Shown here piece by piece: positions 40,998 through 53,625 of a DNA stretch of 64,000 bases. The notes under the pieces were generated by a model that made no database searches, was not told where the DNA came from, and saw nothing but the letters and a program-made list of their open reading frames with translations. The stretch spans positions 704,001 through 768,000 of the forward strand of contig OZ242011.1 of NCBI GenBank assembly GCA_965204755.1, in the 5' to 3' direction. The first letter of the stretch is position 1. Every line of letters begins with the position of its first letter. Made by a program: the position numbers and the translations under genes. Source of the DNA: Candidatus Marinacidobacterium sp. (GTDB lineage: Bacteria; Acidobacteriota; Vicinamibacteria; Marinacidobacterales; Marinacidobacteraceae).

Positions 40998-41090
40998 GCG
41001 CGGATCGACACCCTTCGCACCCACAGGATGCTCGGATCGAGACCCCTCCCATCCACCAGATGCGCCGATCGACACCCTTCGCGCTCACCG
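40998..41090. repeat. Three 32-bp-spaced GATCGA-CCC repeats, same family as 51751-51990
   Basis: CGGATCG at 41001 and 41033, CCGATCG at 41065; GCGCGGATCGACACCCTTCGCACCCACAGG resembles 51961-51990. Confidence 0.7.
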
Positions 41091-41240
41091 GGCACGGGAC
41101 CGACGACCCGCGGCCCCGCACGCGCTAACCTTTGGTTCAAGATTTCTCTCCCGCCCCGCCTCCGGGGCTCTCCTGATGCGGCCGACGGGAAGTTTCCGCC
41201 GACTTCGCCCTGGGGCTGAGTTGGCGGCAGAGGGCGCAAC

Positions 41241-41486
41241 ATGTCACACGAACTCACTCCGATCATCGTCAACGGCCGCAGGCGGCAGGTTGAGTTCAAT
41301 GAACTCACCTTCAACGAACTGGTGGACCTCGCGTTCGACGACCCGGCGCGCGGGCCACAGATCCTCTTCACCATCACTTTCCGCAACGCGGCGCATCGCC
41401 TCGAGAACGGCGAACTCGATCCGGGGCGGACGCTCCGAGTCCAGGAAGACACCGAGATCGATGTCACTCGAACCGACCAGTCGTAG
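41241..41486 (+). CDS. Multi-ubiquitin (beta-grasp) domain protein
   Basis: IIVNGR...LTFNELVDLAF...FTITF...G.L..G..L.V......DVTRTDQS fits the Multi_ubiq family as recalled. Confidence 0.75.
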   Translation: MSHELTPIIVNGRRRQVEFNELTFNELVDLAFDDPARGPQILFTITFRNAAHRLENGELDPGRTLRVQEDTEIDVTRTDQS

Positions 41487-41542
41487 CTTGGACCTTCACC
41501 CCCTTCCGACCCGGTAAGGTTCCTCTTCTCCGACTTCGTTCG

Positions 41543-42724
41543 ATGTCTTCTGCGCAACGTCCCGCCGAGCGTCGCTTGCGCTATCGCCTCGGAGTCCGAT
41601 GGTTTACCTTTGTTTTCCGTCGCGCCGTCAAGACTCGGGACATCATCTTCGGGATTTCTTACATACGACTGCGAGACCACTTTGATCTACCGCTGGAAGA
41701 CGACACGAAGGATCCTCTCGTGAAGTCCGCGATTGCGGCATTCTACTCTTGGGTCGCAGATAGTGCCCCTGCTGTCGACAGGCTCGAGTACTTCCGCTGG
41801 CTTGATTCCGATCCCGATTCGCTCGCGAATCGCAAGACACACTATCGGATTCAGTATCGTCTTCGCTCACATGCGGAAGACGGAAAAATAATTGCCGCAC
41901 GATATCGTACGCTGTACGACGAGGACATCACGGAACCTGACGATGCGACAATACTCGAGACGCACTCCGCTCTCAAGAAGCAATTGCGCAAGATACGCAG
42001 ACGCTATCTGGAAAAGGTCGCCGTACGCATCCGACTTTCACTCAAGGATGTCGCTTACGCCACACCGGTGTTTTCGGTAATGATCGCGCTCGGTGGGTAT
42101 TTCTATACGTCCCGTGTGTACGCACACTTCGGTATCGTCGCAAGCCATTTCTTTACCGCCGGTGACTACTTGTCTGCCAGCGTCCACGCAGTGGAGGCCG
42201 CAGCGCTTTCCGCTGTCCTGTTTGTTGCGTCAATGACTTGGCGAGCCGTGGCCGATGCCAACCTGACGCGGTTCGAGAGAAAGAAGTATGCCGCTCAGAA
42301 TATCTGGCCACAAAGACTCATCATGTTCTCATGTATTTTCGCCTTGATTACAGCAGACGCCGACATGAGAGCTACGGGATGGTTCGGCGTAGCTCTGTTT
42401 GTCGTAGGAGTGAACGTTGTCACTTTCCTTCTGGATCGTATATTTCGTTCATCAATTTCGCTCGTCTCCACTGTGTCTGCCGCCGTCGTATTCGCGGCCA
42501 TGCTGTTTGTGCAATCCAATCAGACAATCAAGAAGATTGAACAAAGTGACGATGTTCGGAACTTTCGTGTACTCATGAGGGACTCCGAGTTCACGAGTGA
42601 CGACTATTCCATCGTTGGGTCCAGCGGAAAGTACCTGTTCCTATGGAAGCGAGATGATGGACAGGTGAAGGCAGTGCCTCATGCTGAGATCCGATGGATG
42701 TCGCTCTCCGAGAAGACCGAGTAA
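41543..42724 (+). CDS. Hypothetical multi-pass membrane protein, low GC
   Basis: Soluble N-terminal half followed by about 5-6 hydrophobic segments; atypical codon usage. Confidence 0.7.
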   Translation: MSSAQRPAERRLRYRLGVRWFTFVFRRAVKTRDIIFGISYIRLRDHFDLPLEDDTKDPLVKSAIAAFYSWVADSAPAVDRLEYFRWLDSDPDSLANRKTHYRIQYRLRSHAEDGKIIAARYRTLYDEDITEPDDATILETHSALKKQLRKIRRRYLEKVAVRIRLSLKDVAYATPVFSVMIALGGYFYTSRVYAHFGIVASHFFTAGDYLSASVHAVEAAALSAVLFVASMTWRAVADANLTRFERKKYAAQNIWPQRLIMFSCIFALITADADMRATGWFGVALFVVGVNVVTFLLDRIFRSSISLVSTVSAAVVFAAMLFVQSNQTIKKIEQSDDVRNFRVLMRDSEFTSDDYSIVGSSGKYLFLWKRDDGQVKAVPHAEIRWMSLSEKTE

Positions 42725-42781
42725 GCGCGCACCGACCGTTGCACGTGCTCCGATATCTCAGTCCGTCCGCGGGATGGAGAG

Positions 42782-45700
42782 TTACTCGAAGAGTTTCTTC
42801 GGCCGGGAGGCTGCCTGGGAGCGGAGTCGGAACTCGTGCTTCGGTTCGGCGGCCAGGAGGTCGGCGGACGGGTCCCGCGCCGGCTGGCCTAGGGCCGACC
42901 ATCGGTGGTGTTCGGGCTGGGTGATGAGGTTGCGGGTGAGGAGGCGGTCGAGGACGCGTAGGCAGCCGGGCGAGTCGAGGTGGCCGGCCGAGCGGAGGAG
43001 TTGGAGGAAGGTGGGCCATTGGGTTCGTGGAGGGACGGCGCGGGAGCAGAGTTCGGCGACCAGGGCCGCTACGCCCTCATCGCCGAGGAGGCGGCGGGTG
43101 TATTCGTCTTCGAGGCGGGAGGCCAGCGCTCGGGCCAGGGAGTCGAGATCGCCCCCCTCGTCGTTCACCGGGGCGGTCTTGGCGATGCGGGCGGCGAGGC
43201 GCTCGCCGTAGGTCGCGGCGCCGAGGAGGTTGCGGGCGTGGAGGTGGGTCTCCCGTTCGCGCTCCTCCGGGGTCTGGACGAGTTGCCAGTCGTAGAAGCG
43301 GGGGCCGAGACGGCTGGCGACCGGTTGGTGTTCCTTCGCGCGGTCGTCGTGGCCGAGGCCATAGTCGGCAAGGCGCAGGGTCTCGGGGGCCATCCAGCCT
43401 TCGCCATGATTCTGGGCGAGGAACGCCTCAATCCCACTCTTTCGCTCGCCACCGGCCTCTTCAATCTTCTTCAAGAGATCGCGGAAGGCGACGACTGTCA
43501 GCACGGTGTGGCGCAGTTCGGGGTCCTTGTCCTTGTCCACGCGCCAAAAACCCTTGGCATCCAGTTCCCCAGCCAGGAACGAACCTTTGATGTTCGCCTG
43601 CGGAAGATCGCAGCGTTGCAATATTCGATGCACATCCTTCAGATCGAGACGAAACGCTACGAACATCACTGCCTCGATTACACAGCGAAGACGAACGCGT
43701 TCGTGTTCGGTCAGCGCTGGGAGCGTGTCGTTGAGTATTAGGGAGGAAGAGCAGAGTGACGAGTGACAAAGGTGTCCCAGTAGGGGTTGGACGCGGCCCA
43801 CTTCCCAAGTGTCCGGTTGTGGAAGGGGAGTCTCCGCCAGCACGAACCAGCTGGCGTCGAGCCCCGAGAGCCGAACACGCAGGCAATAGTCGTAGGCGAA
43901 CGAGTTCAGCACACCACTCAGCGTCGAGCACCATGCCGAGTCGAGGTTCAAGACGCTGACCTTGTGGCCACACGGCACCTGACCCAGAGGCGTCGCGATC
44001 ATTGCTCGTTCGTTTGTCGAAGAAGTGATCGCCATCGCCGCCACCTTCAGATCGGACGATTTCGACTCAGAACGGGTCGTTGACGCCATCAAGTACTGCG
44101 GTTCGATCTGCTTGTCTCGCCACGGTATCTTCCGCCACACTGCCCGGCGCCCCCGGCCGCTGACCCATCCCTTCTTGCTGATGTCGAACTGGCCGATCAT
44201 TCGACCCTCATAGAGCGGTAGAGCGATGGCCTCGATTCCAGCCTCGTGAATCCATTCTCCCCCACCCCGCGAAAGGACGACTCCCGCCGGAAGACGTTCC
44301 CGTTCAATGCCGCTGGCGGGCAATCGCCCTCGCAGATCGTCGATCGGACGCCAGTTGCCGAGGATCCACCGGCTGTATTCGTCGGGCCGGTAGCCCTCTT
44401 TCTCCCACTCGGGACGAGGCGGGAACAGTTCGGAGTCGCCGGTCATGTCGAATTCTCGTTCGTACCGGATTTGCCAGCCGGCCCGGCTTTCGCTGCCCAG
44501 AAGGACGGTGTGCCCATAGATCTTCCCTAGAATCTCCAAGTCTTGCCGTGACTGGATTTCAAGTATGACCCGGCTTTCGGGACTGAAGCGTCGCACTTGG
44601 TCTCCGTCGTACGGAATCGCGTGTTCTTCGGCTCGCTCCCAATCCGCGAGGTCATGGCGCATGAATGCCGTCCGGATAGTCTTGGTAACGCCGGACTTCT
44701 CTACGACGATCGGGCTGAATTTTTGGCGCTCGTCGATGGGGAAGATCCGTCGGCGGTTTTCGATGCTGAACAGCCACTCCCAACGGCAGCGTCCGAGGAA
44801 GTGGTCGCGGAGGTCGCGGGTGCCGTGATCTGAGTAGAGACCAGAAGGAACGAGCAAGCCCAGACGCCCGTGCGGCTGCAGTAAGCCCAGCGACGACTCC
44901 AAGAAGAGTTTGTAGAGATTCAGGTCGGCCGAGCCTTGACGGCGGAAGGGGTGTTCCTCGTCGCAGTAGGCGAGGGCCGTGCGCCTCAGTTCACGCCAAC
45001 GACTGTGGAGTTCATTACCCAATTTGCCGGAGGCGATAGAAAAGCGCTGTGACGACTTCTCGGCGACCTCGGGGTCGCCGAAGGGGCGGGCGGCATGGGA
45101 AGCGAAGTTCGATCTGGCGCGGAAATCGGACAGATAGTCGAGCCACCGGTCTTCGATGTCGTCGTCCTCGAAGTAGCGCTTCTGATTCTTCAGGGCCTCC
45201 TGCTTGCCGTAAGAGCGGTAGAGGGGATCGTGGTCCGAGAAAAACTCCATCGAAATCGGCTTAGCGACATCCCACGGAGGATTGCCGAGGACGGCGGAGA
45301 AACCCGCACCATCCTCGCGGAAGACATCGGGGAACTCCAACTCCCAGTGGAAGAAGCGCATTTGTTCGGCGATGCGCTGCGCCGCTCTTCGGGTCTTCGG
45401 CGTAGGCTTGGCCAAGTCCGCCGGAAGCGGAGCAGAGTCCAAGTCGTTGGCCGGCCAGAACCAGCAGGCGCACCATCGGTCCATCGCTTCCTTGAGCGAT
45501 TGCCAAGCAGAGGAGCCGAGGAACTCACGCCGATAGCGGTCAGCCAGCACCGCAGGGTCACGCACTGGCAACGAGTGGAGGAGTTGCAGCGTTGTTTGGG
45601 CCTCGTCATGGGCGTCCGCGATCTTCGCCAAGTGGTCCTCTTGGTCGAACAGGGTAGGGGCACTCAGGAACTCGCGCAGGTGCGGCTTGAGCCGTTTCAC

Positions 45701-48157
45701 CACGAAGTCCTTGATCGACCTGGCGCGAGCACCTTTCTCGAAGTGCACCCAGTTTCCGTGATTCTCGTCGCCGCCCTTCCGGTTTTTCCAAGCCATCACC
45801 GGGTAGTGGCGGAACTGGTCGAACCAGGCGCCGATGAGGGCGTTGCCGCATTTGATCTTGTGGTCGAGGAAGCCGAAGGGGAGTTCCCGGTCCATGGTCT
45901 CGATCCAGAGGGACAGGCGGCAGAGTTCCACGGCCAGGGGATCGAGGTCCACCGCGTAGATGCAGCGCTCGACGACATAGCGGCGGAGGACGGCCTTCAG
46001 GCGGGGCTCGAAGTCGTCGGCGTCCGGGGGCGCGGGAATGAGTTCCTCCGTCGCGCGGTCGCTGGCGCCGTCGGACAGGCCGAGGAGGCGGACGAGGGAC
46101 GCTTCGCCCCGGGGTTCGATCCGTCCGTGGAAGCGGAGGGAGTCGTAGAGCGCGTCCGTCAGGAAACGCAGCGCCGCCAGCGGGAAGGTGCCGGAGCCGC
46201 AGGCGGGATCGCAGACGGTGATCCGCAGGATGTCTTCGGGTTTCTTCGGTGACCACTTCGGACCGGGGGCGAAGCGGTCGGGTTCGCCGTCCTCGCCCGT
46301 CGGGGGATCGAAGGCGAGGGGGCGCAGCGTGCGCTGGACGGTCGGGATCGCGAGGCCGGGGCGGGTGTAGAAACTGCCGGAACCCTTGCGGGTGCCGCCC
46401 CAGCGCACGAGATACCACTCGCCGGGGGGCACGAGGCGGGCGACCAGGCGGTCGGCGGCAGCGGCGATCTCCCGCTCGCGGGTCAGTCGGTGTTCAGAGG
46501 TCAATCGTCCGCGCGGCTTCTTGACCAACCTGGCCGCTTCGACGGCGCGGAGCGCCCAGCGGCGGGCGCGTTCGCGGTATTCCGCGCCCTCGTCCGCCGG
46601 CGATTCGTCGTCCGGGGTTTCGTCGGCGTCTCCGGCGGCTTCCGGTTCGTCCGCCTTCGCGGCGTCTTCGGCGGTCGCTTCTTCCGGCTCGGCGTCATCG
46701 GCGGCGGAAGACGGCTTCTTCAACTTCTCGAAGAGCGCCTTCAGCGCCTTGTCCTCCATCTCTTCGAGGCGGGACAGCGGGAGCGCCGGGCGGTCGCCGA
46801 CCGGGAGGAAGACCACCGGGTCGTCCTCGGCGGCAGTCTTCAACTCGTAGTCGAGCAGTCCTTCGTAGAGGACGCCGATGTATTCCGACGAAAGGTCGGA
46901 GAAGTCCACCGGCGCGGCGACGACGGCGCTCGTTCGCCCCTTCCGCACGCGGATGCGCGTCCGGGTGAGGAGCCGCAGCATCGTATTCACCTGCTGGTCG
47001 GACGCCGTCTCGCTGTCGAAGCACGCGGTTTCGAAGACGGAGAGCGCCCGCGATACCCCCTCCGCGGAGTCGGGGGCGCCGGGGGCGAAGAGTTCTCCGC
47101 CGTATCGGGTGACCGGGAGTTCGGAGTGCGAGCAGCCTTCGAACACCAGGCGGAAGAGGGCCAGCAGGCGCGGCCAGGCGGCGGTGCGGTCGGAGAGCGG
47201 GCGGCCGGCCGCCTCGTGGCGCTGCAAGCGGTCGCGCAACGCGGTGAGGCCGTAGGCGGCGTCGTAGAGCGCGTTGTCGCGGGGGAGGAGGTCGCGGGAC
47301 TCGGCGTAGAGGACGACGACCATGCGCATCGCCACGCGGCAGGCGGCGCGGTAGATGTCCGCCGGGTCGGTTTCGCCGGCGATCCGCTTGAGCGGCTCGC
47401 CGTGGCTGCGGATCAGGATCTCCACCGCTTCGCGGACGCGTTCGCCGAGTTCTTCCGAGACAGCCGCCTGCCCCTTGCGGGTATCGCGGATCGCGCGGAG
47501 GAGCGGCGCGTCCTTTCCTTCCGTTTCGGGCGTCCAGGGCGGCGGGGACAGCAGGGTTCGCAGGGTTTCGACCTGGGGCGCGAGGCCGCCTTCCTCGAAG
47601 AAGGACTCGACGGTCCACTCGCACCACGCCTCGTAGTCCAGCCCGGCGAAGACCAAGCGCCATTCGCGCCCGTTGGTCAGGAGGGCCAGGTGCTCGCCGC
47701 CGTTCCGCAGCCATTCGACGACGCGGCTCATCTCGCGCCGGCCCTTGCCGACGCCGAGGCGCTGGCCCCGGTCGAAGAACACCGGCAGGCGGGCGCCGTT
47801 GCGGCCGGTCCACCGGGAACGCGGCTTCGCGAGTTCGCCGGTGAGGGCGCGGCGGCCTTCCTCCGCGGGAACCTCGTTGCCGCGCGTCCAGCCGCCCGAA
47901 CGGGCGAAACCGCAGACTTCGTCCAGCGTGTAGTTGACGAAGCGGCTGGCGGCGGCGGGGTCCTTCGAGTCGCCGAGCGCGTCGGCGAGCCGGCGGAACC
48001 GGGACTCGACGAGCCCGGTCAACGGCTCCTTCGGGACGAACTTCGCGAGTTCCGCCGCGCGGGCGGCGTCGAACAGCAGGCCGCCGTGGCGCAGGCGGTC
48101 CCAGCCGGGGAGTTGGAACTCGTCCGCCGCGCGGGAAGAGGGGCGCGGCCGCTTCAT
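42782..48157 (-). CDS. Type IIG/Eco57I-like N6-adenine DNA methyltransferase (DrmMI-like), 1791 aa
   Basis: LLTNGREWRL, IGVLYEGLL, RKGSGSFYT, CDPACGSGTF (motif I), FHWELEFPDVF, GNPPW (motif IV); ATGA overlap with the SNF2 gene. Confidence 0.9.
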   Translation of the reverse strand: MKRPRPSSRAADEFQLPGWDRLRHGGLLFDAARAAELAKFVPKEPLTGLVESRFRRLADALGDSKDPAAASRFVNYTLDEVCGFARSGGWTRGNEVPAEEGRRALTGELAKPRSRWTGRNGARLPVFFDRGQRLGVGKGRREMSRVVEWLRNGGEHLALLTNGREWRLVFAGLDYEAWCEWTVESFFEEGGLAPQVETLRTLLSPPPWTPETEGKDAPLLRAIRDTRKGQAAVSEELGERVREAVEILIRSHGEPLKRIAGETDPADIYRAACRVAMRMVVVLYAESRDLLPRDNALYDAAYGLTALRDRLQRHEAAGRPLSDRTAAWPRLLALFRLVFEGCSHSELPVTRYGGELFAPGAPDSAEGVSRALSVFETACFDSETASDQQVNTMLRLLTRTRIRVRKGRTSAVVAAPVDFSDLSSEYIGVLYEGLLDYELKTAAEDDPVVFLPVGDRPALPLSRLEEMEDKALKALFEKLKKPSSAADDAEPEEATAEDAAKADEPEAAGDADETPDDESPADEGAEYRERARRWALRAVEAARLVKKPRGRLTSEHRLTREREIAAAADRLVARLVPPGEWYLVRWGGTRKGSGSFYTRPGLAIPTVQRTLRPLAFDPPTGEDGEPDRFAPGPKWSPKKPEDILRITVCDPACGSGTFPLAALRFLTDALYDSLRFHGRIEPRGEASLVRLLGLSDGASDRATEELIPAPPDADDFEPRLKAVLRRYVVERCIYAVDLDPLAVELCRLSLWIETMDRELPFGFLDHKIKCGNALIGAWFDQFRHYPVMAWKNRKGGDENHGNWVHFEKGARARSIKDFVVKRLKPHLREFLSAPTLFDQEDHLAKIADAHDEAQTTLQLLHSLPVRDPAVLADRYRREFLGSSAWQSLKEAMDRWCACWFWPANDLDSAPLPADLAKPTPKTRRAAQRIAEQMRFFHWELEFPDVFREDGAGFSAVLGNPPWDVAKPISMEFFSDHDPLYRSYGKQEALKNQKRYFEDDDIEDRWLDYLSDFRARSNFASHAARPFGDPEVAEKSSQRFSIASGKLGNELHSRWRELRRTALAYCDEEHPFRRQGSADLNLYKLFLESSLGLLQPHGRLGLLVPSGLYSDHGTRDLRDHFLGRCRWEWLFSIENRRRIFPIDERQKFSPIVVEKSGVTKTIRTAFMRHDLADWERAEEHAIPYDGDQVRRFSPESRVILEIQSRQDLEILGKIYGHTVLLGSESRAGWQIRYEREFDMTGDSELFPPRPEWEKEGYRPDEYSRWILGNWRPIDDLRGRLPASGIERERLPAGVVLSRGGGEWIHEAGIEAIALPLYEGRMIGQFDISKKGWVSGRGRRAVWRKIPWRDKQIEPQYLMASTTRSESKSSDLKVAAMAITSSTNERAMIATPLGQVPCGHKVSVLNLDSAWCSTLSGVLNSFAYDYCLRVRLSGLDASWFVLAETPLPQPDTWEVGRVQPLLGHLCHSSLCSSSLILNDTLPALTEHERVRLRCVIEAVMFVAFRLDLKDVHRILQRCDLPQANIKGSFLAGELDAKGFWRVDKDKDPELRHTVLTVVAFRDLLKKIEEAGGERKSGIEAFLAQNHGEGWMAPETLRLADYGLGHDDRAKEHQPVASRLGPRFYDWQLVQTPEERERETHLHARNLLGAATYGERLAARIAKTAPVNDEGGDLDSLARALASRLEDEYTRRLLGDEGVAALVAELCSRAVPPRTQWPTFLQLLRSAGHLDSPGCLRVLDRLLTRNLITQPEHHRWSALGQPARDPSADLLAAEPKHEFRLRSQAASRPKKLFE

Positions 48158-51100
48158 CCGGGTTTCTCCGGGAAGCGGATTTCGACGGTTACCGGGAACA
48201 CCTGGACTTCGCCGGCGAGCGAGTAGCGGGCGGGCACCAGACGGTTCAGGATGCGGTCGCGTTCTTCGGCGAGGTTCCGGCGAAGCGCCTCGTGGCCTTC
48301 GAGCGTGCGCCGGTGTTCTTCTTCGAGGAGGTCCCGCGAACGGGAGATGCGGGCGGCGCGCTCCTCGGCGTCGAACAACATGCGGCGCCGGCTCTCTTCC
48401 TTCAGGGCTTCGAGGTCGCGCGCGATCCGGTCCAGTTTGTTCCCGGTGATGAGTTCGGACACTTCGGCCTGGCGGCGGTCGTATTCCTCGGTCTCGCGCC
48501 GCTTCGCCGTTGCGCCGCGCCGCTCCAGCGCCGCCCGGATGTCCCGGCCCAACCGGTAGCGGTGGGTCGAGAGACGCTTCTTGAGCGCCGGGACGACCTC
48601 GTCCAGCAGTTCGCGGGCGTCCTCGTCTTCCGGGTCGTGGACGGACTCGGCGGCGGCGATACCCCGGGTGGTTTCGTCCGGCAGCGCCTCGCCCAGTTCG
48701 CCGCCGCGCACCGGGAACGCGAGCGTGCGCACCCAGCGGTGGAACGGCTCGCGCAGTTCGTTCACGGCGAACTCCTCGACGCTGAACAGCGCGACCGCCT
48801 CCGCGCCGCGCGCCGCTCCGGGCAGGGTCTCCGGAGTAAACCCGCCGCGGCGCGCCGTCCAGCGGGAAACCGTCACCCCGGTCCCGGTCCCGGTCCTCGA
48901 ATACCGCCGCCGCGCCAGCACGGCGAGCGAGCGGCGGAGCAGCGGGTGCGCCAGGTGCACGAGTTGCATCTCCGGGCGGGGCCGGAAGACGGTGAGCGAA
49001 CCGCAGGCTTCGAGGAACGGTCGCTCGTCGAAGGCGAGGCGCGGCATCGGGCCGAGGCCGGCGCCGTTCGCCGAGAGGCGCACTTCGCTGTCGAAGACTT
49101 CGCGCCAGCCGGGGAGGTCGGGGTTCGCCACGGTGAACGCGCCCGGCTGGTTCGGGGCGGGAGCGAGGGGGCGGGCGCCGCCGGCGGTCCCGAGCGCGGC
49201 GGCGAGGGTATGGCGGAGCGCGTCGGGGTGGAGGTCGAGCCGCGCCGCGAAGTCGGCGACGCCGGTGGTCGCGCTTTCGTCGGCGTCGGACTGGGCGTCG
49301 TACCGGGCGCTGTCCCGCGCGGTTTCGAGGCTGCGTTCGAACTCCGGTTCCACGAGTTTCGGTTGTTCGCCGCGAATGAGCCGGCGATGCACGGCGCGGT
49401 CGAACACCTCGTTGACCGAGCCCAGGTCGTCGCGCATCTCGTTGGCCTTCTCCACCAGCCGGGCGAGGAACGCGAGGTCCGGGTCGCTCCCGCTCAGGAA
49501 GTGGTGGATCGAGACATCGCGGCCTTGCCCGTAGCGGTCGAGCCGGCCGTTCCGCTGCTCGAGGCGCGAGGGATTCCAGGGGCAGTCGTAGTGGAGGAGG
49601 CGGCGGGCGGTGCGCTGCAGGTTCAGCCCTTCGGAAGCGGCGTCGGTGGCGACCAGGATCCGCACGGGAGCGCCGGGGTCGTTGAACGCGCCCTTGACCG
49701 CCTCGCGGTCGTCTTCGCCCATACCTTCCGCGCCGCCGGCGCCGAACAGGGTGAGGACGCGCTCTTCGGGGTATCGCTCGCGCAGCCGGCGGGTGAGGTA
49801 GTCGAGCGTGGTCTTGTATTCCGTGAAGACGATGAGGCGTTCGTCGTCGCGGAAGGCGCCGCCGCCGCGGAGGCGGTCTTCGATGAGGCGAGTGAGCGCG
49901 TCGAGGCGGGTGTCGGCGGCGGGGTCCTGTTCGACCGTGGGCGCGCCGGCGAGGTCGAAGCCGAGGGATTCGAGAGCGGTGCGGAGGCGCGCGATCTGCG
50001 GGCGGAGGTCGGCTTCGTAGTTCCCGAGCCAAGAACCGGTGACTTCGGCGGCGACGGCTTCGCGGCGTTCGGTCTCGCGGTCGTCGCCGGTGTCCCGGTC
50101 GAGCGAGCGCTTTTCCGCCATGAGTTGCGCGTCCTCGGCGGGCTGGTCGGCGAGGCCGGCGAGGACGCGCCGCCAGGACTCGGCGAAGGCGGTCGGGCAG
50201 GAGAGGAGGCGCTTGTTCAGGACTTCGACCGCGAAGTTGCCGGCGCGGCGGCGGCCGTCCTCGGTCGCGCGGACGAGTTGGTGGAGGCGCGCGCGGAAGT
50301 CGGAGAAGGCGGCGGAGAGTTCCGCTTCGAGGGGATCGTCGCGGAGGCGGAGCGCTTCGGGAGGGAGGCGGCGGCAGAAGCGGCGCGGTTCCCGGGTGGC
50401 GCCTTCGCCGGGATCGCCGTTCGAGGACGGGTCGAGGTGGCGCTTGAGCCGGCGGATCACCACTTCGCCGGTGCGGCGGCGGAGGGCCGGGGTCATGCGC
50501 GAAGTGCGGTGGAAGCGCACCGGGTCGAGCATCTCCAGCAGGCCGGTGAACGAGCGGGTATGCCCGTTGTGCGGCGTCGCCGAGAGGAAGAGGCGGTGCT
50601 CGAAGTGGGGCGTGATCTCGCGCAGCGTCCGGCAGAGTTCGCTGTCTTCGCCGACCGGGGCCGGCATCAGGTTGTGGCATTCGTCCACGATGAGCAGGTC
50701 CCAGGGCAGCCGGGGCGACTGCGGCGCGCCTTCGGGCCGGCGGTGGGCGGCGCGGAACTGCTCGCGGATCTCCGGCTGGCGGAGGTAGTGGTAGGAAGCG
50801 ACGATCCGGTCGTGCGAGCGCCAGGGGTTCGCGTCCATTCCCAGCGAGCGGCGCAGGTGTTCCGTCTCGCGCCGGTCCACGATCTCGAAACGGAGCGCGA
50901 ACTTCTCGCGCATCTCTTCCTTCCACTGGCGGCGCAGCGAGGCCGGCGTGAGGACGAGGACGCGGCGGATGCGCCGGCGGAGCAGCAACTCGGCGAGGAT
51001 CAGCCCGGCCTCGACGGTCTTGCCGAGCCCCACATCGTCGGCGATGAGCAGGTTCACGCGGGGCATCCGCAGCGCCTTCACCAGCGGGACGAGTTGGTAG

Positions 51101-51471
51101 GGCTCGATCCGGACGCCGCCGTGGAAGGGGCTGCTCGGCGGCGGGTCTTCGGCGTCGCTTTCGTCGAGGTAGGGGGTGAGCGCCGTCCAGCGCGCGGCGC
51201 GGAGCAGCGCGTCGAAGTCGGCGGGCGGCATCGGCGGCGCGGCGCCGTTCGGGACATCGTTCGGCTCGTGGAGCCGCGCGCCGGGCTCGATCTCCCAGAC
51301 CAGCCGCTCGCTCGGCGGGGAGTGGTGGTCGAGGTAGTCCAGGTGGACGAGGCGGAGGCGCTTGTCGCGGCCGACGGTTTCGTCCACGCCCGCGATGACC
51401 GCCCGCCGGTTGCGGACGGTGGCGACCATCCCGACGCGGGGGACGGACGGGGGGTCGGCGGCGGGGCTCAC
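48154..51471 (-). CDS. drmD: DISARM DrmD-like SNF2 helicase
   Basis: LLIADDVGLGKT, LIVDECHN, LSATPHNG, TDAASEGLNLQ, WNPSRLEQRNGRLDRYGQ. Start approximate. Confidence 0.85.
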   Translation of the reverse strand: MSPAADPPSVPRVGMVATVRNRRAVIAGVDETVGRDKRLRLVHLDYLDHHSPPSERLVWEIEPGARLHEPNDVPNGAAPPMPPADFDALLRAARWTALTPYLDESDAEDPPPSSPFHGGVRIEPYQLVPLVKALRMPRVNLLIADDVGLGKTVEAGLILAELLLRRRIRRVLVLTPASLRRQWKEEMREKFALRFEIVDRRETEHLRRSLGMDANPWRSHDRIVASYHYLRQPEIREQFRAAHRRPEGAPQSPRLPWDLLIVDECHNLMPAPVGEDSELCRTLREITPHFEHRLFLSATPHNGHTRSFTGLLEMLDPVRFHRTSRMTPALRRRTGEVVIRRLKRHLDPSSNGDPGEGATREPRRFCRRLPPEALRLRDDPLEAELSAAFSDFRARLHQLVRATEDGRRRAGNFAVEVLNKRLLSCPTAFAESWRRVLAGLADQPAEDAQLMAEKRSLDRDTGDDRETERREAVAAEVTGSWLGNYEADLRPQIARLRTALESLGFDLAGAPTVEQDPAADTRLDALTRLIEDRLRGGGAFRDDERLIVFTEYKTTLDYLTRRLRERYPEERVLTLFGAGGAEGMGEDDREAVKGAFNDPGAPVRILVATDAASEGLNLQRTARRLLHYDCPWNPSRLEQRNGRLDRYGQGRDVSIHHFLSGSDPDLAFLARLVEKANEMRDDLGSVNEVFDRAVHRRLIRGEQPKLVEPEFERSLETARDSARYDAQSDADESATTGVADFAARLDLHPDALRHTLAAALGTAGGARPLAPAPNQPGAFTVANPDLPGWREVFDSEVRLSANGAGLGPMPRLAFDERPFLEACGSLTVFRPRPEMQLVHLAHPLLRRSLAVLARRRYSRTGTGTGVTVSRWTARRGGFTPETLPGAARGAEAVALFSVEEFAVNELREPFHRWVRTLAFPVRGGELGEALPDETTRGIAAAESVHDPEDEDARELLDEVVPALKKRLSTHRYRLGRDIRAALERRGATAKRRETEEYDRRQAEVSELITGNKLDRIARDLEALKEESRRRMLFDAEERAARISRSRDLLEEEHRRTLEGHEALRRNLAEERDRILNRLVPARYSLAGEVQVFPVTVEIRFPEKPG

Positions 51472-51742
51472 CGGGACAGGGGGCGGACCCGGGCGCGGGG
51501 CCGGCTCATGGAGTCGTCGGGGTCGGGAAGGTCGGGGGAGCGGGGCCGGTGCGGCGGCGAGTCCGCCCCGCGGCGCGGGCTGCCCCGGGCGGCGCGGCGG
51601 CGCCGCGCTCCGGGGGCGGAAGACGGTACGCCATCCGCGCCGAAATCCCGACCCCCGCCGCCGCGGGCCGGGCGCTCGGTCCGGCAGCCGCCGGACACCA
51701 CGCGGATCCCAAACTACAACCCGTCCACGAAAGCGGGGCAAC

Positions 51743-52014
51743 CTCACGCCCGGATCGAGCCCCTTCACCGGCCCGATGTCGCGGATCGCGACCCCCCTTC
51801 ACCCATCGACCGGCGGATCGCCCCCCCTACCGGACTCACGACGCGGATCGAGCCCCCTCGCACCCGCAGAACACCCGGATCGACCCCCTGCTCCGGCTCG
51901 ATATCGCGCACCGACCCCCCTTCACCCGCCAGCGCGGATCGACCCCGTGCCCGGCTCACGGCGCGGATCGAGCCCCTTCGCGCCCGCAGGAATCGCCGAC
52001 GAACGCGCGGATCG
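51743..52014. repeat. ~30-bp period array with CGGATCG core
   Basis: Perfect CGGATCG at 51751, 51782, 51814, 51844, 51876, 51935, 51964, 52008 (also 52264, 52295), usually followed by a C run. Confidence 0.85.
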
Positions 52015-52029
52015 GGTATGGCGAGCCAA

Positions 52030-52123
52030 GAATTGTGTATAGCTGCCACGAATTGTGTATAGGTCAGCCGAATTGTGTATAGCTCGGCCCGAATTGTGTA
52101 TAGCTGACGCGAATTGTGTATAG
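52030..52123. repeat. Array A: 5x GAATTGTGTATAG, 20-21 bp period
   Basis: Perfect copies at 52030, 52050, 52070, 52091, 52111. Confidence 0.95.
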
Positions 52124-52316
52124 GTGAGCGCCCCGGGGCCGTTCGCAGCGCGGATACGCGGCGGAACGGCGTGCGCGGGACTGCCTCGAAGACCGGTTCA
52201 GGCGCTCCGGAGAGCGTCCGGGAGGCTCTATGACGCCGAATTCGCATGTCCGAACGCGCCGGGCGGATCGAGCCCCGAATCGCCCACGAACGCCCGGATC
52301 GGGTATGGCCGACCGG

Positions 52317-52431
52317 GAATTGTGTATAGGTGACGCGAATTGTGTATAGCTCCGCCGGAATTGTGTATAGCTCCGGTGAATTGTGTATAGCTCCGCCGGA
52401 ATTGTGTATAGCTCCGGTGAATTGTGTATAG
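52317..52431. repeat. Array B: 6x GAATTGTGTATAG, 20-21 bp period
   Basis: Perfect copies at 52317, 52337, 52358, 52378, 52399, 52419. Confidence 0.95.
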
Positions 52432-52488
52432 CTGACCACGGGCCGACCCGGACGCGTGGACGCGCTCCTTTCCCTGCCGCGGCCGCGT

Positions 52489-53625
52489 TCAACCGCGTTT
52501 CGCCGGTTCTTCCTCCGGGCGCAGGACCTCGACGATTCGCGGATTCTGCAAATGCCGGCGCGAACCGATGCGCTGCAGGTTTCCCCGAGCGATCACGGCG
52601 ACGCTGTCGCGCCGCGCCTCGACGGCCCGGCGGTAGTCGCGTTCGTCGAAGACCGCGGTGACCGTTCGCCGCCGACCGGGCGCGTCCGGTTCGCGAACCC
52701 GCAGGGTCACTTCGCCCGCGTGTTCGGTTTCCCCGTTGCCGGGGCGCGAGACGAAACCCACGAAGGACGCCGCCTCCTGCGGTTCCCCCTCCCGGCAGAA
52801 CCGCGCCGCCTCCCGAACCGCGGGGGAGTCGGCGGCGGCGAATCGCGTGGAACTCGCCGGCTCGTCGGCCGGCGAAGTGAGCGCCCAGGAAACGCCGATG
52901 TCCACCGCGTCGAACGCTTCCGTCAGGTCGGCGATCGCTTCGCAGAGGTTCGCGCTGACGCCCTCTCCGACGAGATCCGCGAACGCGCCGGGCTCACCCG
53001 CCGCGGTCGCTTCCACCGCTCGGCGCGCCGCACGCAGGGACTCGACCAGGCGCTTCGGAACCGTTCGGGAGAAGGGCTCCTTTTCCGGTCGATCCGGACC
53101 GGGGAGTCGGCCCGGAGACACCGTCGGAGTCAGGAGCGTCGCGACGAAACCGCCGGGCTCGGTATGGCCCAGGCGGACTCGCCGGAGGTACTTCGCGGCC
53201 TCCGGGTTCTCGCCGGCGCGATGGAGCGCCTGCGGCCGCTCCGCCGAGCAGGCGGCCGCGAACAGGAGGTTCCGCGCGCCGGCGAGGAGCGCGACGCGGT
53301 CCTCGACGGTCGCCTCCGGCCCGTTGCCCTCCGCGCCCACCCGGATCACATCCCGGTCCGCCGCGGTCAGGTCGTGGTGCACCCGCAACTGCGAAACCTC
53401 CCCGGTCTCCGAGAAGATCTCCAGCAGCCGGGTGACGGCGCTCGCGTAGTCACCGAGATCGGCCGTCCTCGGGATGAGGATCTCCGATCGGTCCTCGGCG
53501 CCATAGATATCGGCGTGGTCGCCGAACTCCCCGGTCTTCGCCCAACCATGCGCTCTCGCGTAGGCCGAAAGCGCGGCGGGCGTTACCCGCCGCACGGCGT
53601 CCCAGTCGCGGACGAAGACCCTCAC
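52489..53625 (-). CDS. Conserved hypothetical protein with a possible C-terminal OB-like domain
   Basis: 378-aa ORF with host-like codons; YARAHGW, GHTEPGGF, GVSANLCEAI and VSWA motifs recall a family often seen in defence loci. Confidence 0.7.
   Translation of the reverse strand: MRVFVRDWDAVRRVTPAALSAYARAHGWAKTGEFGDHADIYGAEDRSEILIPRTADLGDYASAVTRLLEIFSETGEVSQLRVHHDLTAADRDVIRVGAEGNGPEATVEDRVALLAGARNLLFAAACSAERPQALHRAGENPEAAKYLRRVRLGHTEPGGFVATLLTPTVSPGRLPGPDRPEKEPFSRTVPKRLVESLRAARRAVEATAAGEPGAFADLVGEGVSANLCEAIADLTEAFDAVDIGVSWALTSPADEPASSTRFAAADSPAVREAARFCREGEPQEAASFVGFVSRPGNGETEHAGEVTLRVREPDAPGRRRTVTAVFDERDYRRAVEARRDSVAVIARGNLQRIGSRRHLQNPRIVEVLRPEEEPAKRG

Follow-up and report, generated by a model that had tools for sequence, protein, structure and literature searches.

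Phased two-array repeat modules as putative protein-binding sites in a Candidatus Marinacidobacterium genome

What are the eleven identical copies of a 13-mer, GAATTGTGTATAG, that stand in two clusters between a DISARM gene and an uncharacterised gene in Candidatus Marinacidobacterium sp.? The copies lie in the window, a stretch of 64,000 nucleotides, where a first-pass annotation had proposed that they might be iterons or DnaA boxes, a loading or decoy array for defence proteins, or a repeat non-coding RNA. Our best explanation, to which we give an even chance, is that the arrays are selected, phased clusters of putative sites at which one sequence-specific DNA-binding protein would dock, and that they descend from a mobile repeat.

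Anatomy of the arrays in the window

We identified the following features at this locus, given in window coordinates.

48154..51768, minus strand: drmD, 1204 aa, SNF2 helicase of a DISARM system (SNF2-rel_dom, Helicase_C; PADLOC DrmD E 1.9e-195)
51712..51745, plus strand: copy of a 34-38 bp element, AACTACAACCCGTCCACGAAAGCGGGGCAACCTC
51751..51976, plus strand: second repeat array of eight units resembling CGGATCGASCCCC, 28-32 bp apart
51990..52022, plus strand: leader copy 1, GAATCGCCGACGAACGCGCGGATCGGGTATGGC, 33 nt
52030..52126, plus strand: A-family array 1, five exact GAATTGTGTATAG plus S-T-S, spacing 20, 20, 21, 20
52127..52276, no strand: inter-array spacer, GC-rich
52277..52309, plus strand: leader copy 2, GAATCGCCCACGAACGCCCGGATCGGGTATGGC, 33 nt
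52317..52434, plus strand: A-family array 2, six exact GAATTGTGTATAG plus S-T-S, spacing 20, 21, 20, 21, 20
52489..53625, minus strand: 378-aa gene, PADLOC candidate defence family PDC-M02B, E 1.7e-98

Allowing up to two mismatches, the window contains 11 matches to GAATTGTGTATAG, all exact and all on the plus strand, starting at 52030, 52050, 52070, 52091 and 52111 in array 1 and at 52317, 52337, 52358, 52378, 52399 and 52419 in array 2. None of 100 dinucleotide shuffles of the window reached this number (mean 0.03), and the initial description of five plus six exact copies 20-21 bp apart is confirmed. TRF reported periods of 20 and 41 at the arrays, and array 2 carries a 41-bp higher-order repeat. 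The leader that was said to precede both clusters is indeed duplicated; its copies differ at two positions, the same two that had been given as dotted, and CGGATCGGGTATGGC within it has exactly two copies genome-wide, both at this locus. The spacer shows a weak relationship to those of the other modules, described below, and holds one further CGGATCGAGCCCC unit at 52264.

The GATC cluster noted beside the arrays corresponds to the eight CGGATCGASCCCC-like units, each of which contains GATC and TCGA, overlapping (genome positions 755751-755964; spacings 31, 32, 30, 32, 31, 28 and 29). This motif is about 10-fold enriched within 500 bp of the 14 modules of the genome (11 versus 1.08 expected), an enrichment due mainly to the window locus. 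The flanking genes are also as first reported: drmD, whose start is 262 bp from array 1, is read in the direction away from the arrays, and the 378-aa gene, whose product matched no Pfam or NCBIfam family, has its stop 58 bp from array 2. We treat both genes as context, with only putative membership of the element.

The window arrays were also found in assemblies from four studies. Short reads from other studies' runs yield contigs over the arrays: a 400-nt record from X7 spans 51719-52118 with one differing letter and a 277-nt record from X3 spans 51840-52116 with none, which excludes an assembly artefact. X1 is possibly the source sample itself. The X7 contigs differ by 12 letters and 21 gaps over the spacer region (52097-52356), and the flanking gene differs by 36 letters in 1,223. 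Between strains, array 1 and the upstream repeats thus vary less than the flanking gene or the spacer.

A genome-wide family of two-array modules

The genome carries 104 copies of GAATTGTGTATAG at no more than one mismatch, 100 of them exact, whereas the reversed control gave none. All 104 fall in nine loci (E1-E9) with nine to 14 copies each, and every locus consists of two arrays in the same direction, 140-222 bp apart. The initial account of the window arrays therefore stands, but not its scope, since the locus (E2) is one of nine. We also found a sister family, B, with the same architecture: 60 copies of a core, TGTGTCTTT, in five modules whose two arrays lie 197-252 bp apart. Together, families A and B form 14 non-coding two-array modules around the chromosome.

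Within family A, only four substitutions were found among 1,352 core positions. The motif reaches past the 13-mer (+13 is C in 76 and G in 28 copies, +14 T in 95 and C in nine, +15 G in 73 and C in 30), so that the conserved site is about 16 bp long, GAATTGTGTATAG plus S-T-S. The DNA between the cores behaves differently. There are 68 distinct linkers among 86, and the nine spacers (GC 0.69-0.86, with no AT-rich stretch) have a mean identity of 0.61 compared to 0.59 in shuffled controls (36 pairs); linkers and spacers of different A modules resemble each other no more than shuffled controls do. Shared blocks are still visible among the A spacers in MAFFT alignments, indicating that whole A modules are homologous.

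The spacing of the A cores is quantised, grouping at two, three or four helical turns. The commonest of the 86 within-array spacings is 20-21 bp, with 56 cases, and nine more lie just outside it at 19 or 22 bp. A further 16, spread over at least five separate arrays, measure 29-32 bp and one measures 43 bp; four are off phase (15, 16, 23 and 24 bp) and none falls at 25-28 or 33-42 bp. As tandem units arise by duplication, these spacings are not independent observations. The core-to-core distance from array to array, 153-235 bp, has no common helical register. It had been allowed at the outset that the array might prove to recur at many unrelated loci with no conserved phasing; it does recur at unrelated loci, and its phasing is conserved. 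In family B, 10 of 46 within-array intervals are 13 bp, a non-integral number of turns, so strict binding on one helix face fails for that family. All five B modules have an AT-rich element of 40-45 bp following array 1.

Family B is also present in a congener, G001, with 21 core matches and none in the control. Module B3 occupies a syntenic site in both species, next to a protein that is 86% identical over 739 aa; its cores and AT-rich element have been retained, and its copy numbers and linkers have changed. Arrays of the 13-mer GAATTGTGTATAG are absent from every other genome searched, including G001. Exact-pattern scans for the 13-mer gave no viral, three metagenome and one genome stretch, all of them the same Chloroflexales-type oriC with two copies, which we read as coincidence or a weak DnaA box there. 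A text search of the literature found the 13-mer on neither strand, and a search for dispersed iteron-like repeats yielded only papers on eukaryotic satellites among the matches listed. Family A, absent from the congener and AGCT-rich like recently acquired DNA, could be of recent origin, which could explain part of the identity of its cores.

No conserved gene accompanies the modules. In Pfam scans the flanking ORFs have unrelated functions, and E1, E3, E9, B2 and B4 sit between housekeeping genes. An all-against-all comparison of DNA and protein in the flanks revealed no conserved neighbour: apart from the arrays and small repeats, it returned just the two DrmD paralogues (32% identity) and the B3 synteny, and beyond these last two the flanking ORFs share no protein between module loci.

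Such gene-free intergenic modules at unrelated loci might belong to a selfish or neutral class of interspersed repeat, MITE-like, with tandem repeats inside and no host function. Core identity would then come from recent spread or the needs of a transposase. Turnover between species is consistent with this account. Module E9 is missing from the same site in G001, where about 270 bp separate the orthologous genes compared to about 720 bp in the window's genome, as expected of an insertion or deletion. The intergenic DNA of the two species does not align, which leaves no module ends to read off against the empty site. Only one of four G001 modules examined is syntenic with a module of the window's genome, and another, G1d, has no counterpart there. 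A 38-bp element, AACTACAACCCGTCCACGAAAGCGGGGCAACCTC, has seven copies in the genome, five beside A modules, one beside B1 and one solo. It points inward at all five of the nine A modules that it adjoins, lying forward on the array-1 side at E2, E3 and E6 and inverted on the array-2 side at E1 and E7. In addition, a MITE of the sister genus G004 ends in CAGCCTGTGGATAAAGTC, which has AGCCTGTG in common with the B unit and, with the A core, TGTG-ATA-G, and the AGCT content of family A resembles that of recently acquired DNA. We nevertheless consider this account quite unlikely. Spacers and linkers are at chance identity while the cores, which should have drifted as well, are nearly unchanged; the arrays are co-oriented, unlike transposon ends; the 38-bp element flanks none of the nine A modules on both sides; no target duplication can be defined; a non-exhaustive search found no transposase with matching ends; and B3 has been kept at one site in two species.

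Replication, RNA and defence as possible explanations

The invariant core, single orientation per module and helical phasing, with 56 of 86 A spacings at 20-21 bp, give the arrays the iteron-type look that had first been proposed. An origin role is not borne out. The GC skew shows no origin-type switch, with 10 of the 14 modules of opposite sign, and the mean skew change across modules is -598 compared to 0 +/- 289 at random sites, if anything terminus-like. The dnaA gene (1,822,832-1,824,703), parB and a near-consensus parS lie at 1.82 Mb, 1.06 Mb from the window locus, and no module-type boxes occur within 15 kb of them. Pfam scans of the ORFs flanking all 14 modules detected no Rep-like family. 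Nor did they detect the ParB, ParR or RHH family that a plasmid-type partition centromere would have beside it; the genome's three ParB_N genes lie at 1.818, 2.670 and 3.796 Mb, none at modules. On skew, the location of dnaA, parB and parS and the lack of rep genes in the flanks, we reject a replication origin.

A related proposal is that the arrays titrate or regulate DnaA, in the manner of datA, DARS or the DnaA-box clusters of Bacillus, or act as extra origin-like elements. As the first-pass annotation pointed out, the site read on the reverse strand, CTATACACA, differs from TTWTNCACA by one mismatch. When the genome is ranked by the density of TGTGT/TGTGG half-boxes, the 14 modules take the first 14 places; the 13-mer occurs twice within a Chloroflexales oriC among TGTGGATAA boxes, and family B has its AT-rich element after array 1. 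However, 16 bp are conserved rather than nine, including flanks that a DnaA box does not need, and the B core, which departs from the consensus at three positions, makes a poor DnaA box. There are only six exact matches to TTWTNCACA genome-wide, none in modules, and the region upstream of dnaA has no repeated 9-mer of note; since the genome has no canonical DnaA-box cluster anywhere, that consensus may not represent the organism's own box. Array direction shows no replichore polarity (five co-directional, nine head-on). Together with the terminus-like skew change and the distance to dnaA, parB and parS, these findings make a DnaA-directed role, titration included, very improbable. An excess of TTWTCCACA in sister genera reflects a MITE end in G004 and many contig-end copies in G007, not arrays.

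The AU-rich repeats with GC-rich linkers recall in outline those of sponge RNAs, and the modules might encode a repeat-bearing non-coding RNA such as a protein sponge or a short-RNA precursor. Adjacent linkers are complementary in array 1 of E1, and inspection by eye shows a recurrent GC hairpin, its loop of CCGG type, in several of the spacers. Rfam, however, matched only three tRNAs in 13 module loci and the window region, elsewhere in the loci and not on the arrays. Spacer fold z-scores ranged from -1.9 to +1.3 on either strand and array z-scores were inconsistent, the orientation relative to adjacent genes is variable, and spacing by helical turns would be meaningless for RNA. No sigma-70-like promoter or intrinsic terminator was found at the modules, which also led us to reject arrays of promoters or terminators. 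An RNA product, the last of the explanations first proposed, is thus very improbable.

A connection with defence was suggested by the neighbours of the window arrays. Two A modules, E2 and E6, stand immediately upstream of DrmD genes (PADLOC E 1.9e-195 and 1e-237), B1 adjoins HmaB, E4 and E6 adjoin PDC-S01 and E2 adjoins PDC-M02B (all by PADLOC). Sequence composition points the same way. The tetranucleotide AGCT, noted early on as created by eight copies and otherwise avoided, is present in eight of the 11 window units, and the window has 15 copies compared to 143.8 +/- 10.5 expected. Genome-wide there are 332 compared to 7,448 expected, a 25-fold depletion, and 70 of the 332 fall in the 3.8 kb of A arrays. 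According to a preprint, the methylases of Serratia class 1 DISARM modify ACACAG and MTCGAK (bioRxiv 10.1101/2021.12.28.474362). Both motifs lie inside neighbouring repeat units, ACACAG within the B unit and MTCGAK, as CTCGAT, within the CGGATCGAGCCCC unit upstream of the window arrays; the A unit contains ACACAA. The modules hold 59 of the 183 genomic copies of ACACAG and 102 of the 172 of ACACAA.

The arrays might accordingly be dense, one-direction sets of recognition or methylation motifs for the genome's DISARM, BREX or Hma-type systems, together with an AGCT-targeting activity, serving as hubs for self-marking, methyltransferase loading, sensing or decoy. We regard this as unlikely. Methylase motifs are 6-7 bp long, whereas 16 bp are conserved in the arrays; AGCT occurs in just 70 of 104 A units, and family A has ACACAA instead of ACACAG. 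The ACACAG match was noticed post hoc, and the published motifs are those of Serratia enzymes and may not be this organism's. Among 13 DrmD-model matches at about 10 loci of the window's genome, only two loci have a module, which rules out a general association of DrmD with modules. No TGTGT-type array was found upstream at the best DrmD locus of this genome or at two DrmD loci examined in G001, one of which probably corresponds to the drmD locus of the window. The two DrmD neighbours, the AGCT anomaly and the coincidence with DISARM motifs somewhat strengthen the case for the loading or decoy array proposed at first, but most modules stand beside other kinds of gene, E1, E3, E9, B2 and B4 among them.

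A more specific version, which we rate as rather unlikely, is that the modules are chromosomal identity hubs of defence, phased one-direction arrays that concentrate rare or forbidden motifs (ACACAR, MTCGAK-type and AGCT) and would be permanently occupied by a methyltransferase, a reader or an SNF2 complex. Equally tentatively, such hubs might serve DISARM, BREX or Hma-like systems by loading, calibrating or restraining them, or might sense the loss of methylation. If true, they would be a dedicated non-coding "self" component of restriction-like immunity.

Proposed phased binding arrays and known systems that resemble them

A 13-base core that stays constant while the sequence between copies varies argues for docking arrays of a putative DNA-binding protein, and we infer that protein binding is the constraint on the cores. 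The persistence of AGCT in 70 array units, when it has been purged genome-wide, is as expected of permanent occupancy or a local function. The protein would recognise, with high affinity, an asymmetric site of about 16 bp, GAATTGTGTATAG-S-T-S, and would bind head-to-tail along a single face of the helix, advancing two or three turns from unit to unit. Binding may be cooperative, and the two arrays of a module, 140-222 bp apart, may be bridged into one bipartite nucleoprotein complex. The modules themselves would be genus-specific, gene-free and formerly mobile intergenic elements, and selection would now maintain the binding sites at each module locus.

No candidate for the binding protein was found at the modules, where no gene is conserved. 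A 160-aa protein beside the solo 38-bp element has an RHH-like look; it was set aside as having no paralogue in the genome and matching the NCBIfam "T4SS effector SepA family". For a second candidate, a 443-aa protein encoded next to a TGTGTTTCCAGG array in genus g2, the window's genome, G001 and G004 contain no relative. That array lies beside ArdC genes in an apparent mobile element and is probably unrelated to the modules.

The modules resemble the iteron arrays of theta-replicating plasmids and SaPI-type island origins. In those arrays too, direct repeats follow one another in tandem, the core is invariant and the linkers vary, each unit takes up about two helical turns, and an arrangement in two blocks is common; an AT-rich stretch beside the repeats is a further likeness, but in family B only. 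The modules differ in having fourteen dispersed chromosomal copies with no initiator gene beside any, no AT-rich stretch in family A and no origin-type skew. Two blocks of short direct repeats are also found in parC, the type II partition centromere of plasmid R1, which is bound by ParR, and in related RHH-bound repeat arrays such as the omega protein sites and tubC. Repeats of the parC type are bound cooperatively into one complex and act as a platform, not a code. The blocks of parC flank the promoter of its own parMR operon, tens of bp apart, whereas the modules have no partner genes, 140-222 bp between blocks and many chromosomal sites.

The chromosomal DnaA-box clusters of E. coli (datA and DARS) and of B. 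subtilis (those outside oriC) are likewise several groups of one protein's sites away from the origin, and the A core is one mismatch from a relaxed DnaA box. Unlike these clusters, the modules have sites that are strictly tandem, in one orientation and phased, with 16 bp conserved, and have a sister family that is not box-like, in a genome whose dnaA region is without canonical boxes. The methylation-dependent iterons of Vibrio cholerae chromosome 2 and GATC clusters bound by SeqA combine phased repeats with a short methylatable palindrome in each. Putative counterparts here are AGCT, which 70 of the 104 A units contain, and the GATC/TCGA of the array adjacent to the window's module; the palindrome of the A units is not invariant (C in 76 and G in 28 copies at +13), and the modules stand at many non-origin loci.

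As gene-free intergenic elements at many loci, lineage-specific and with a variable number of internal tandem units, the modules also resemble pneumococcal BOX, neisserial NIME/dRS3, cyanobacterial STRR and mycobacterial MIRU. In those elements entire units are repeated and drift together. In the modules, by contrast, a core of 13-16 bp is invariant and the 4-18 bp between cores are free in sequence and constrained in length. Even if the modules were merely a selfish repeat, such core-only conservation would be unusual and would still need a mechanism.

In conclusion, the helically phased iteron-like arrays known from elsewhere each form a single locus linked to a gene of a plasmid, phage or origin. 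In this genome that grammar belongs to a gene-free module copied to 14 chromosomal sites, in two specificity classes, and the modules turn over between sister species yet are under strong constraint. Their link with the purge of AGCT and with defence islands offers a concrete way to test how restriction-like systems and the DNA of their host influence one another. Should the modules be bound by a dedicated protein, they would constitute a chromosome-wide nucleoprotein system in an uncultured, marine, sponge-associated lineage.

Module E2 and the nine loci of family A

The 13-mer repeats picked out by the first-pass annotation are real. Eleven exact copies of GAATTGTGTATAG lie in the window, all on the + strand and 20-21 bp apart, a number of matches reached in none of 100 dinucleotide shuffles with two mismatches allowed (shuffle mean 0.03). 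As had been described, each of the two arrays in this module, E2, follows a common 33-nt leader:

Module E2 in the window
51990-52022, leader of array 1
52030-52123, + strand, array 1, five copies of GAATTGTGTATAG
52277-52309, leader of array 2
52317-52431, + strand, array 2, six copies of GAATTGTGTATAG

The neighbours were also correctly named: one is DrmD, the SNF2 helicase of DISARM (PADLOC E 1.9e-195), and the other is a 378-aa protein without a Pfam or NCBIfam family, which matches the PADLOC candidate defence family PDC-M02B (E 1.7e-98). An assembly artefact is ruled out, since the E2 arrays are covered by contigs from publicly available runs of other studies. Run X3 has a 277-nt record of window 51840-52116 with no differing letter. 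Run X7 has a 400-nt record of window 51719-52118, and this strain differs by 1 letter in 400 over the upstream repeats and array 1, by 36 letters in 1,223 in the flanking gene, and by 12 letters and 21 gap positions in 260 in the E2 spacer. Runs with matching contigs are labelled sponge and marine metagenomes, none is recorded as RNA, and run X1 may be the source sample.

The genome is a single 3.98-Mb contig with a G+C content of about 72%, of which the window is 704001-768000, and it holds 104 copies of GAATTGTGTATAG at no more than one mismatch, compared with 0 for the reversed control. All are confined to nine loci, E1 to E9 (9, 11, 12, 14, 12, 9, 10, 13 and 14 copies), and two further singletons with two mismatches are chance-like. 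Every locus has two arrays of 4-10 copies apiece in the same direction, separated by a GC-rich spacer of 140-222 nt (177-193 nt in seven of the nine). Homology ends at the module edge, outside which small accessory repeats alone are held in common, and no gene common to the flanks was found by DNA and protein comparison of the nine loci.

Family A was not found in 40 relatives, including the single-contig congener G001 (0 matches). A search of a species-level genome collection, viral contigs and metagenome contigs returned only a two-copy occurrence in a Chloroflexales-type oriC: in a Chloroflexales MAG (L026 4902-4936) and metagenome loci L027-L029, two copies identical to the 13-mer and 22 bp apart fall within a clear oriC, together with several TGTGGATAA boxes. 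The phylum is an unrelated one, and the genome has about 45% G+C. Our tallies over relatives (families A and B, the units of genus g2 and the MITE-end 9-mer) include the unpublished genome G033, on which no claim depends.

Constraint, spacing and AGCT depletion

Exact cores account for 100 of the 104 family A copies, with four substitutions over 1,352 core positions, and conservation runs three positions past the core (+13, C 76 and G 28; +14, T 95 and C 9; +15, G 73, C 30 and T 1). Among the 86 linkers 68 are distinct, with 85% G+C past the first three linker bases. The nine spacers align no more closely than shuffled controls do (mean identity 0.61 against 0.59, 36 pairs); blocks in common persist in local alignment, which indicates that whole A modules are homologous.

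Within-array spacings in family A (86 intervals; those inside one array are not independent)
20-21 bp, 56
19 or 22 bp, 9
29-32 bp, 16
43 bp, 1
15, 16, 23 or 24 bp, 4
25-28 or 33-42 bp, 0

At least five separate arrays, whose linkers are unrelated, contain the class of roughly 30 bp. Together with the quantised spacings, this argues that length is fixed to a whole number of helical turns (two, three or four) and that sequence is free. A selfish or neutral repeat is an explanation of the modules that we consider rather improbable.

The annotation had noted that eight array units create AGCT, a word otherwise avoided, and this holds: the window has 15 AGCT sites against 143.8 +/- 10.5 expected.

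AGCT sites in the window
2016
6400
33422
41485
42370
42391
43849
eight further sites in the arrays

Genome-wide there are 332 copies against 7,448 expected under a maximal-order Markov model (observed/expected 0.04, about 25-fold depletion); the ratios for other words are 0.04 for ACGT, 0.13 for CTAG and 0.32 for TTAA. The purge is a genus trait as judged by GAGCTG relative to its reversed control (0.7% in the genome under study and 4% in G001, against 46% in G008, 51% in G026 and 58% in the sister genus, G004). Seventy of the 332 copies lie inside 3.8 kb of A modules, and 52% of the remainder fall in regions where local G+C is below 0.66, which make up 9.3% of the genome. Since AGCT is purged genome-wide, concentrated in A modules and otherwise largely found in low-GC DNA, either the A arrays are exempt from its removal, for example by being occupied or modified, or else they are recent foreign DNA.

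At window 41000-46000 there is a low-GC stretch, with 0.57-0.64 where about 0.72 is usual, and it overlaps the region of the DrmMI / Type IIG-like methylase, which lies downstream of drmD. Its composition and the presence there of four of the seven non-array AGCT sites suggest recently acquired DNA.

Accessory repeats, sister modules and turnover

Accessory repeats accompany the modules. A 38-bp element with core CCGTCCACGAAAGCGGGG has seven copies, lies beside five of the nine A modules and B1, always faces inward to the arrays and never flanks both sides.

Copies of the 38-bp element
window 51712-51745
contig 245991-246017
contig 358250-358317
contig 422237-422265
contig 1207893-1207921
contig 2895829-2895852
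contig 2970725-2970762

At E2, eight CGGATCGASCCCC units spaced at 28-32 bp (window 51751-51976) stand between this element and array 1. Four modules, E1, E7, E8 and B1, adjoin a two-part element of two GACACC...ACTTTTACGCA repeats, which also occurs about 2 kb from B2. Units related to CGGATCGAGCCCC, among them the eight at E2, carry overlapping GATC and TCGA; two long runs of them comprise 116 fifteen-base units over 1.8 kb (contig 339974-341756) and 21 units of 32 bp (contig 2781655-2782307).

A solo copy of the 38-bp element led to the sister family B, which has unit GAGCCTGTGTCTTTCG, core TGTGTCTTT and 60 cores in five modules (L042-L046):

Family B modules on the contig
245538-245955
587968-588405
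1046737-1047160
2291686-2292207
3356797-3357235

Each has two arrays in like direction, 197-252 bp apart, and all five have an AT-rich element of 40-45 bp after array 1. The 14 A and B modules are the 14 densest TGTGT/TGTGG word clusters of the genome. Family B has 21 matches in G001 (control, 0), where its sites include 134.5, 1952.7, 2274.3 and 4155.9 kb; in none of the other 39 relatives does it exceed control. Other variants of the core, CATGTGTCAT for example, occur in G001 as well, as do longer arrays of 33-bp period.

Module B3 occupies the same site in both species, where the adjoining protein shows 86% identity across 739 aa; its cores and AT-rich element are kept, and its copy numbers and linkers have changed. 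E9 is missing from G001, where the orthologous interval between aroA and aroB measures about 270 bp, compared with about 720 bp in the genome under study, and nothing in the latter corresponds to module G1d of G001. Modules have thus been gained and lost, with at least one retained in place since the species split.

In the sister genus, a MITE of G004 ends in CAGCCTGTGGATAAAGTC, which has AGCCTGTG in common with the B unit and matches the A core at TGTG-ATA-G. These short similarities hint at an ancestor of the array units that resembled a transposon end and belonged to this bacterial family. The MITE (L055-L064, L069) has about 40 copies with inverted ends CAGCCTGTGGATAAAGTCGCG, including perfect TTATCCACA, a 9-mer that also lies near many contig ends in G007. 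A relative of the MITE end, TCAGCCGGTGGACAAAGTC, occurs three times with a 222-bp period at contig 316845-317307. Five genomes of another genus, g2 (G017, G011, G023, G043, G019; L049-L053), each have one locus of 4-6 TGTGTTTCCAGG units spaced at 21 bp. It directly follows a 443-aa gene without known family, of which no relative was found in the genome under study or G001, and precedes a palindromic CCCCAATTCC repeat, a (CA)n run and ArdC-type genes, a setting that points to a mobile element carrying an iteron-like array of its own.

Origin, RNA, defence and binding-site readings

The origin-like site proposed for E2 is contradicted by several observations. The genes for DnaA and ParB and a one-mismatch parS sit together at 1.82 Mb, no rep-like gene was found among the flanking ORFs scanned at the modules, the family A spacers are GC-rich, and the skew change at modules is opposite in sign to that of an origin (mean -598 against 0 +/- 289 at random sites). 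Replichore polarity is absent from array direction. Contig 1,815,000-1,830,000 holds an rpmH-rnpA-like region, dnaA, dnaN, parB and the parS, with no AT-rich stretch, and no DnaA-box cluster was found near dnaA; GC skew is weak and irregular (minimum 2.54 Mb, maximum 3.92 Mb). The annotation's DnaA box stands insofar as the reverse strand of the A core is one mismatch from TTWTNCACA, but conservation covers 16 positions rather than nine. The B core has three mismatches to the consensus, and that sequence, which may not be this organism's own box, has six exact matches in the whole genome. A DnaA or origin-like element is very unlikely.

A repeat RNA, also suggested earlier, is very unlikely too. 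No Rfam family besides three tRNAs elsewhere was found in the window region and 13 module loci, folding z-scores scatter about zero on both strands, the modules yielded neither a sigma-70-like promoter nor an intrinsic terminator, and orientation to neighbouring genes is inconsistent.

The genes beside modules are heterogeneous, and no enrichment of their defence/toxin-type members is claimed:

Genes flanking modules
Housekeeping: hisF, aroA/aroB, amidase, pyruvate kinase, era-like GTPase
Defence/toxin-type: DrmD at E2 and E6; PDC-M02B at E2; PDC-S01 at E4 and E6
Defence/toxin-type: Uma2 on both sides of E7; Fic at E8; HmaB at B1
Defence/toxin-type: C5 methylase near B3; PD-(D/E)XK protein at B5

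The Uma2-family genes lie at L023 4955-5653 and 6547-7362; the gene with a Fic domain at E8 and the gene adjoining E5, which has a weak Fic-like C-terminal/HTH match, are those at L021 6394-7638 and L024 6307-7458. That the modules are defence-linked motif hubs is possible, if unlikely. A preprint on Serratia class 1 DISARM states that its DrmMI methylates ACACAG and its DrmMII MTCGAK (bioRxiv 10.1101/2021.12.28.474362). By these Serratia specificities, which may differ from those of this organism's enzymes, the B unit contains ACACAG (a post hoc match, made once the motif had been seen), the CGGATCGAGCCCC unit contains CTCGAT, which fits MTCGAK (a match made once the preprint had been read), and the A unit contains ACACAA against ACACAG. 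The 13 DrmD-model matches of the genome under study fall at about ten loci, only two of which have a module, and no TGTGT-type array was found upstream of the best-scoring DrmD locus or two DrmD loci of G001.

Iteron-like arrays and interspersed repeats are known kinds of thing. To our knowledge the combination is new, namely a dispersed gene-free element, a bipartite build, core-only conservation, two specificity classes and the AGCT anomaly; no description of it was found in the literature searched for the 13-mer and dispersed iteron-like repeats. The many 13-bp spacings of family B are at odds with one-face binding. The best-supported reading, in which we place about as much belief as doubt, is that the modules are selected, helically phased arrays of putative binding sites for one sequence-specific protein, gene-free, once mobile and genus-specific, and that the two arrays of each module would be joined in one bipartite complex.
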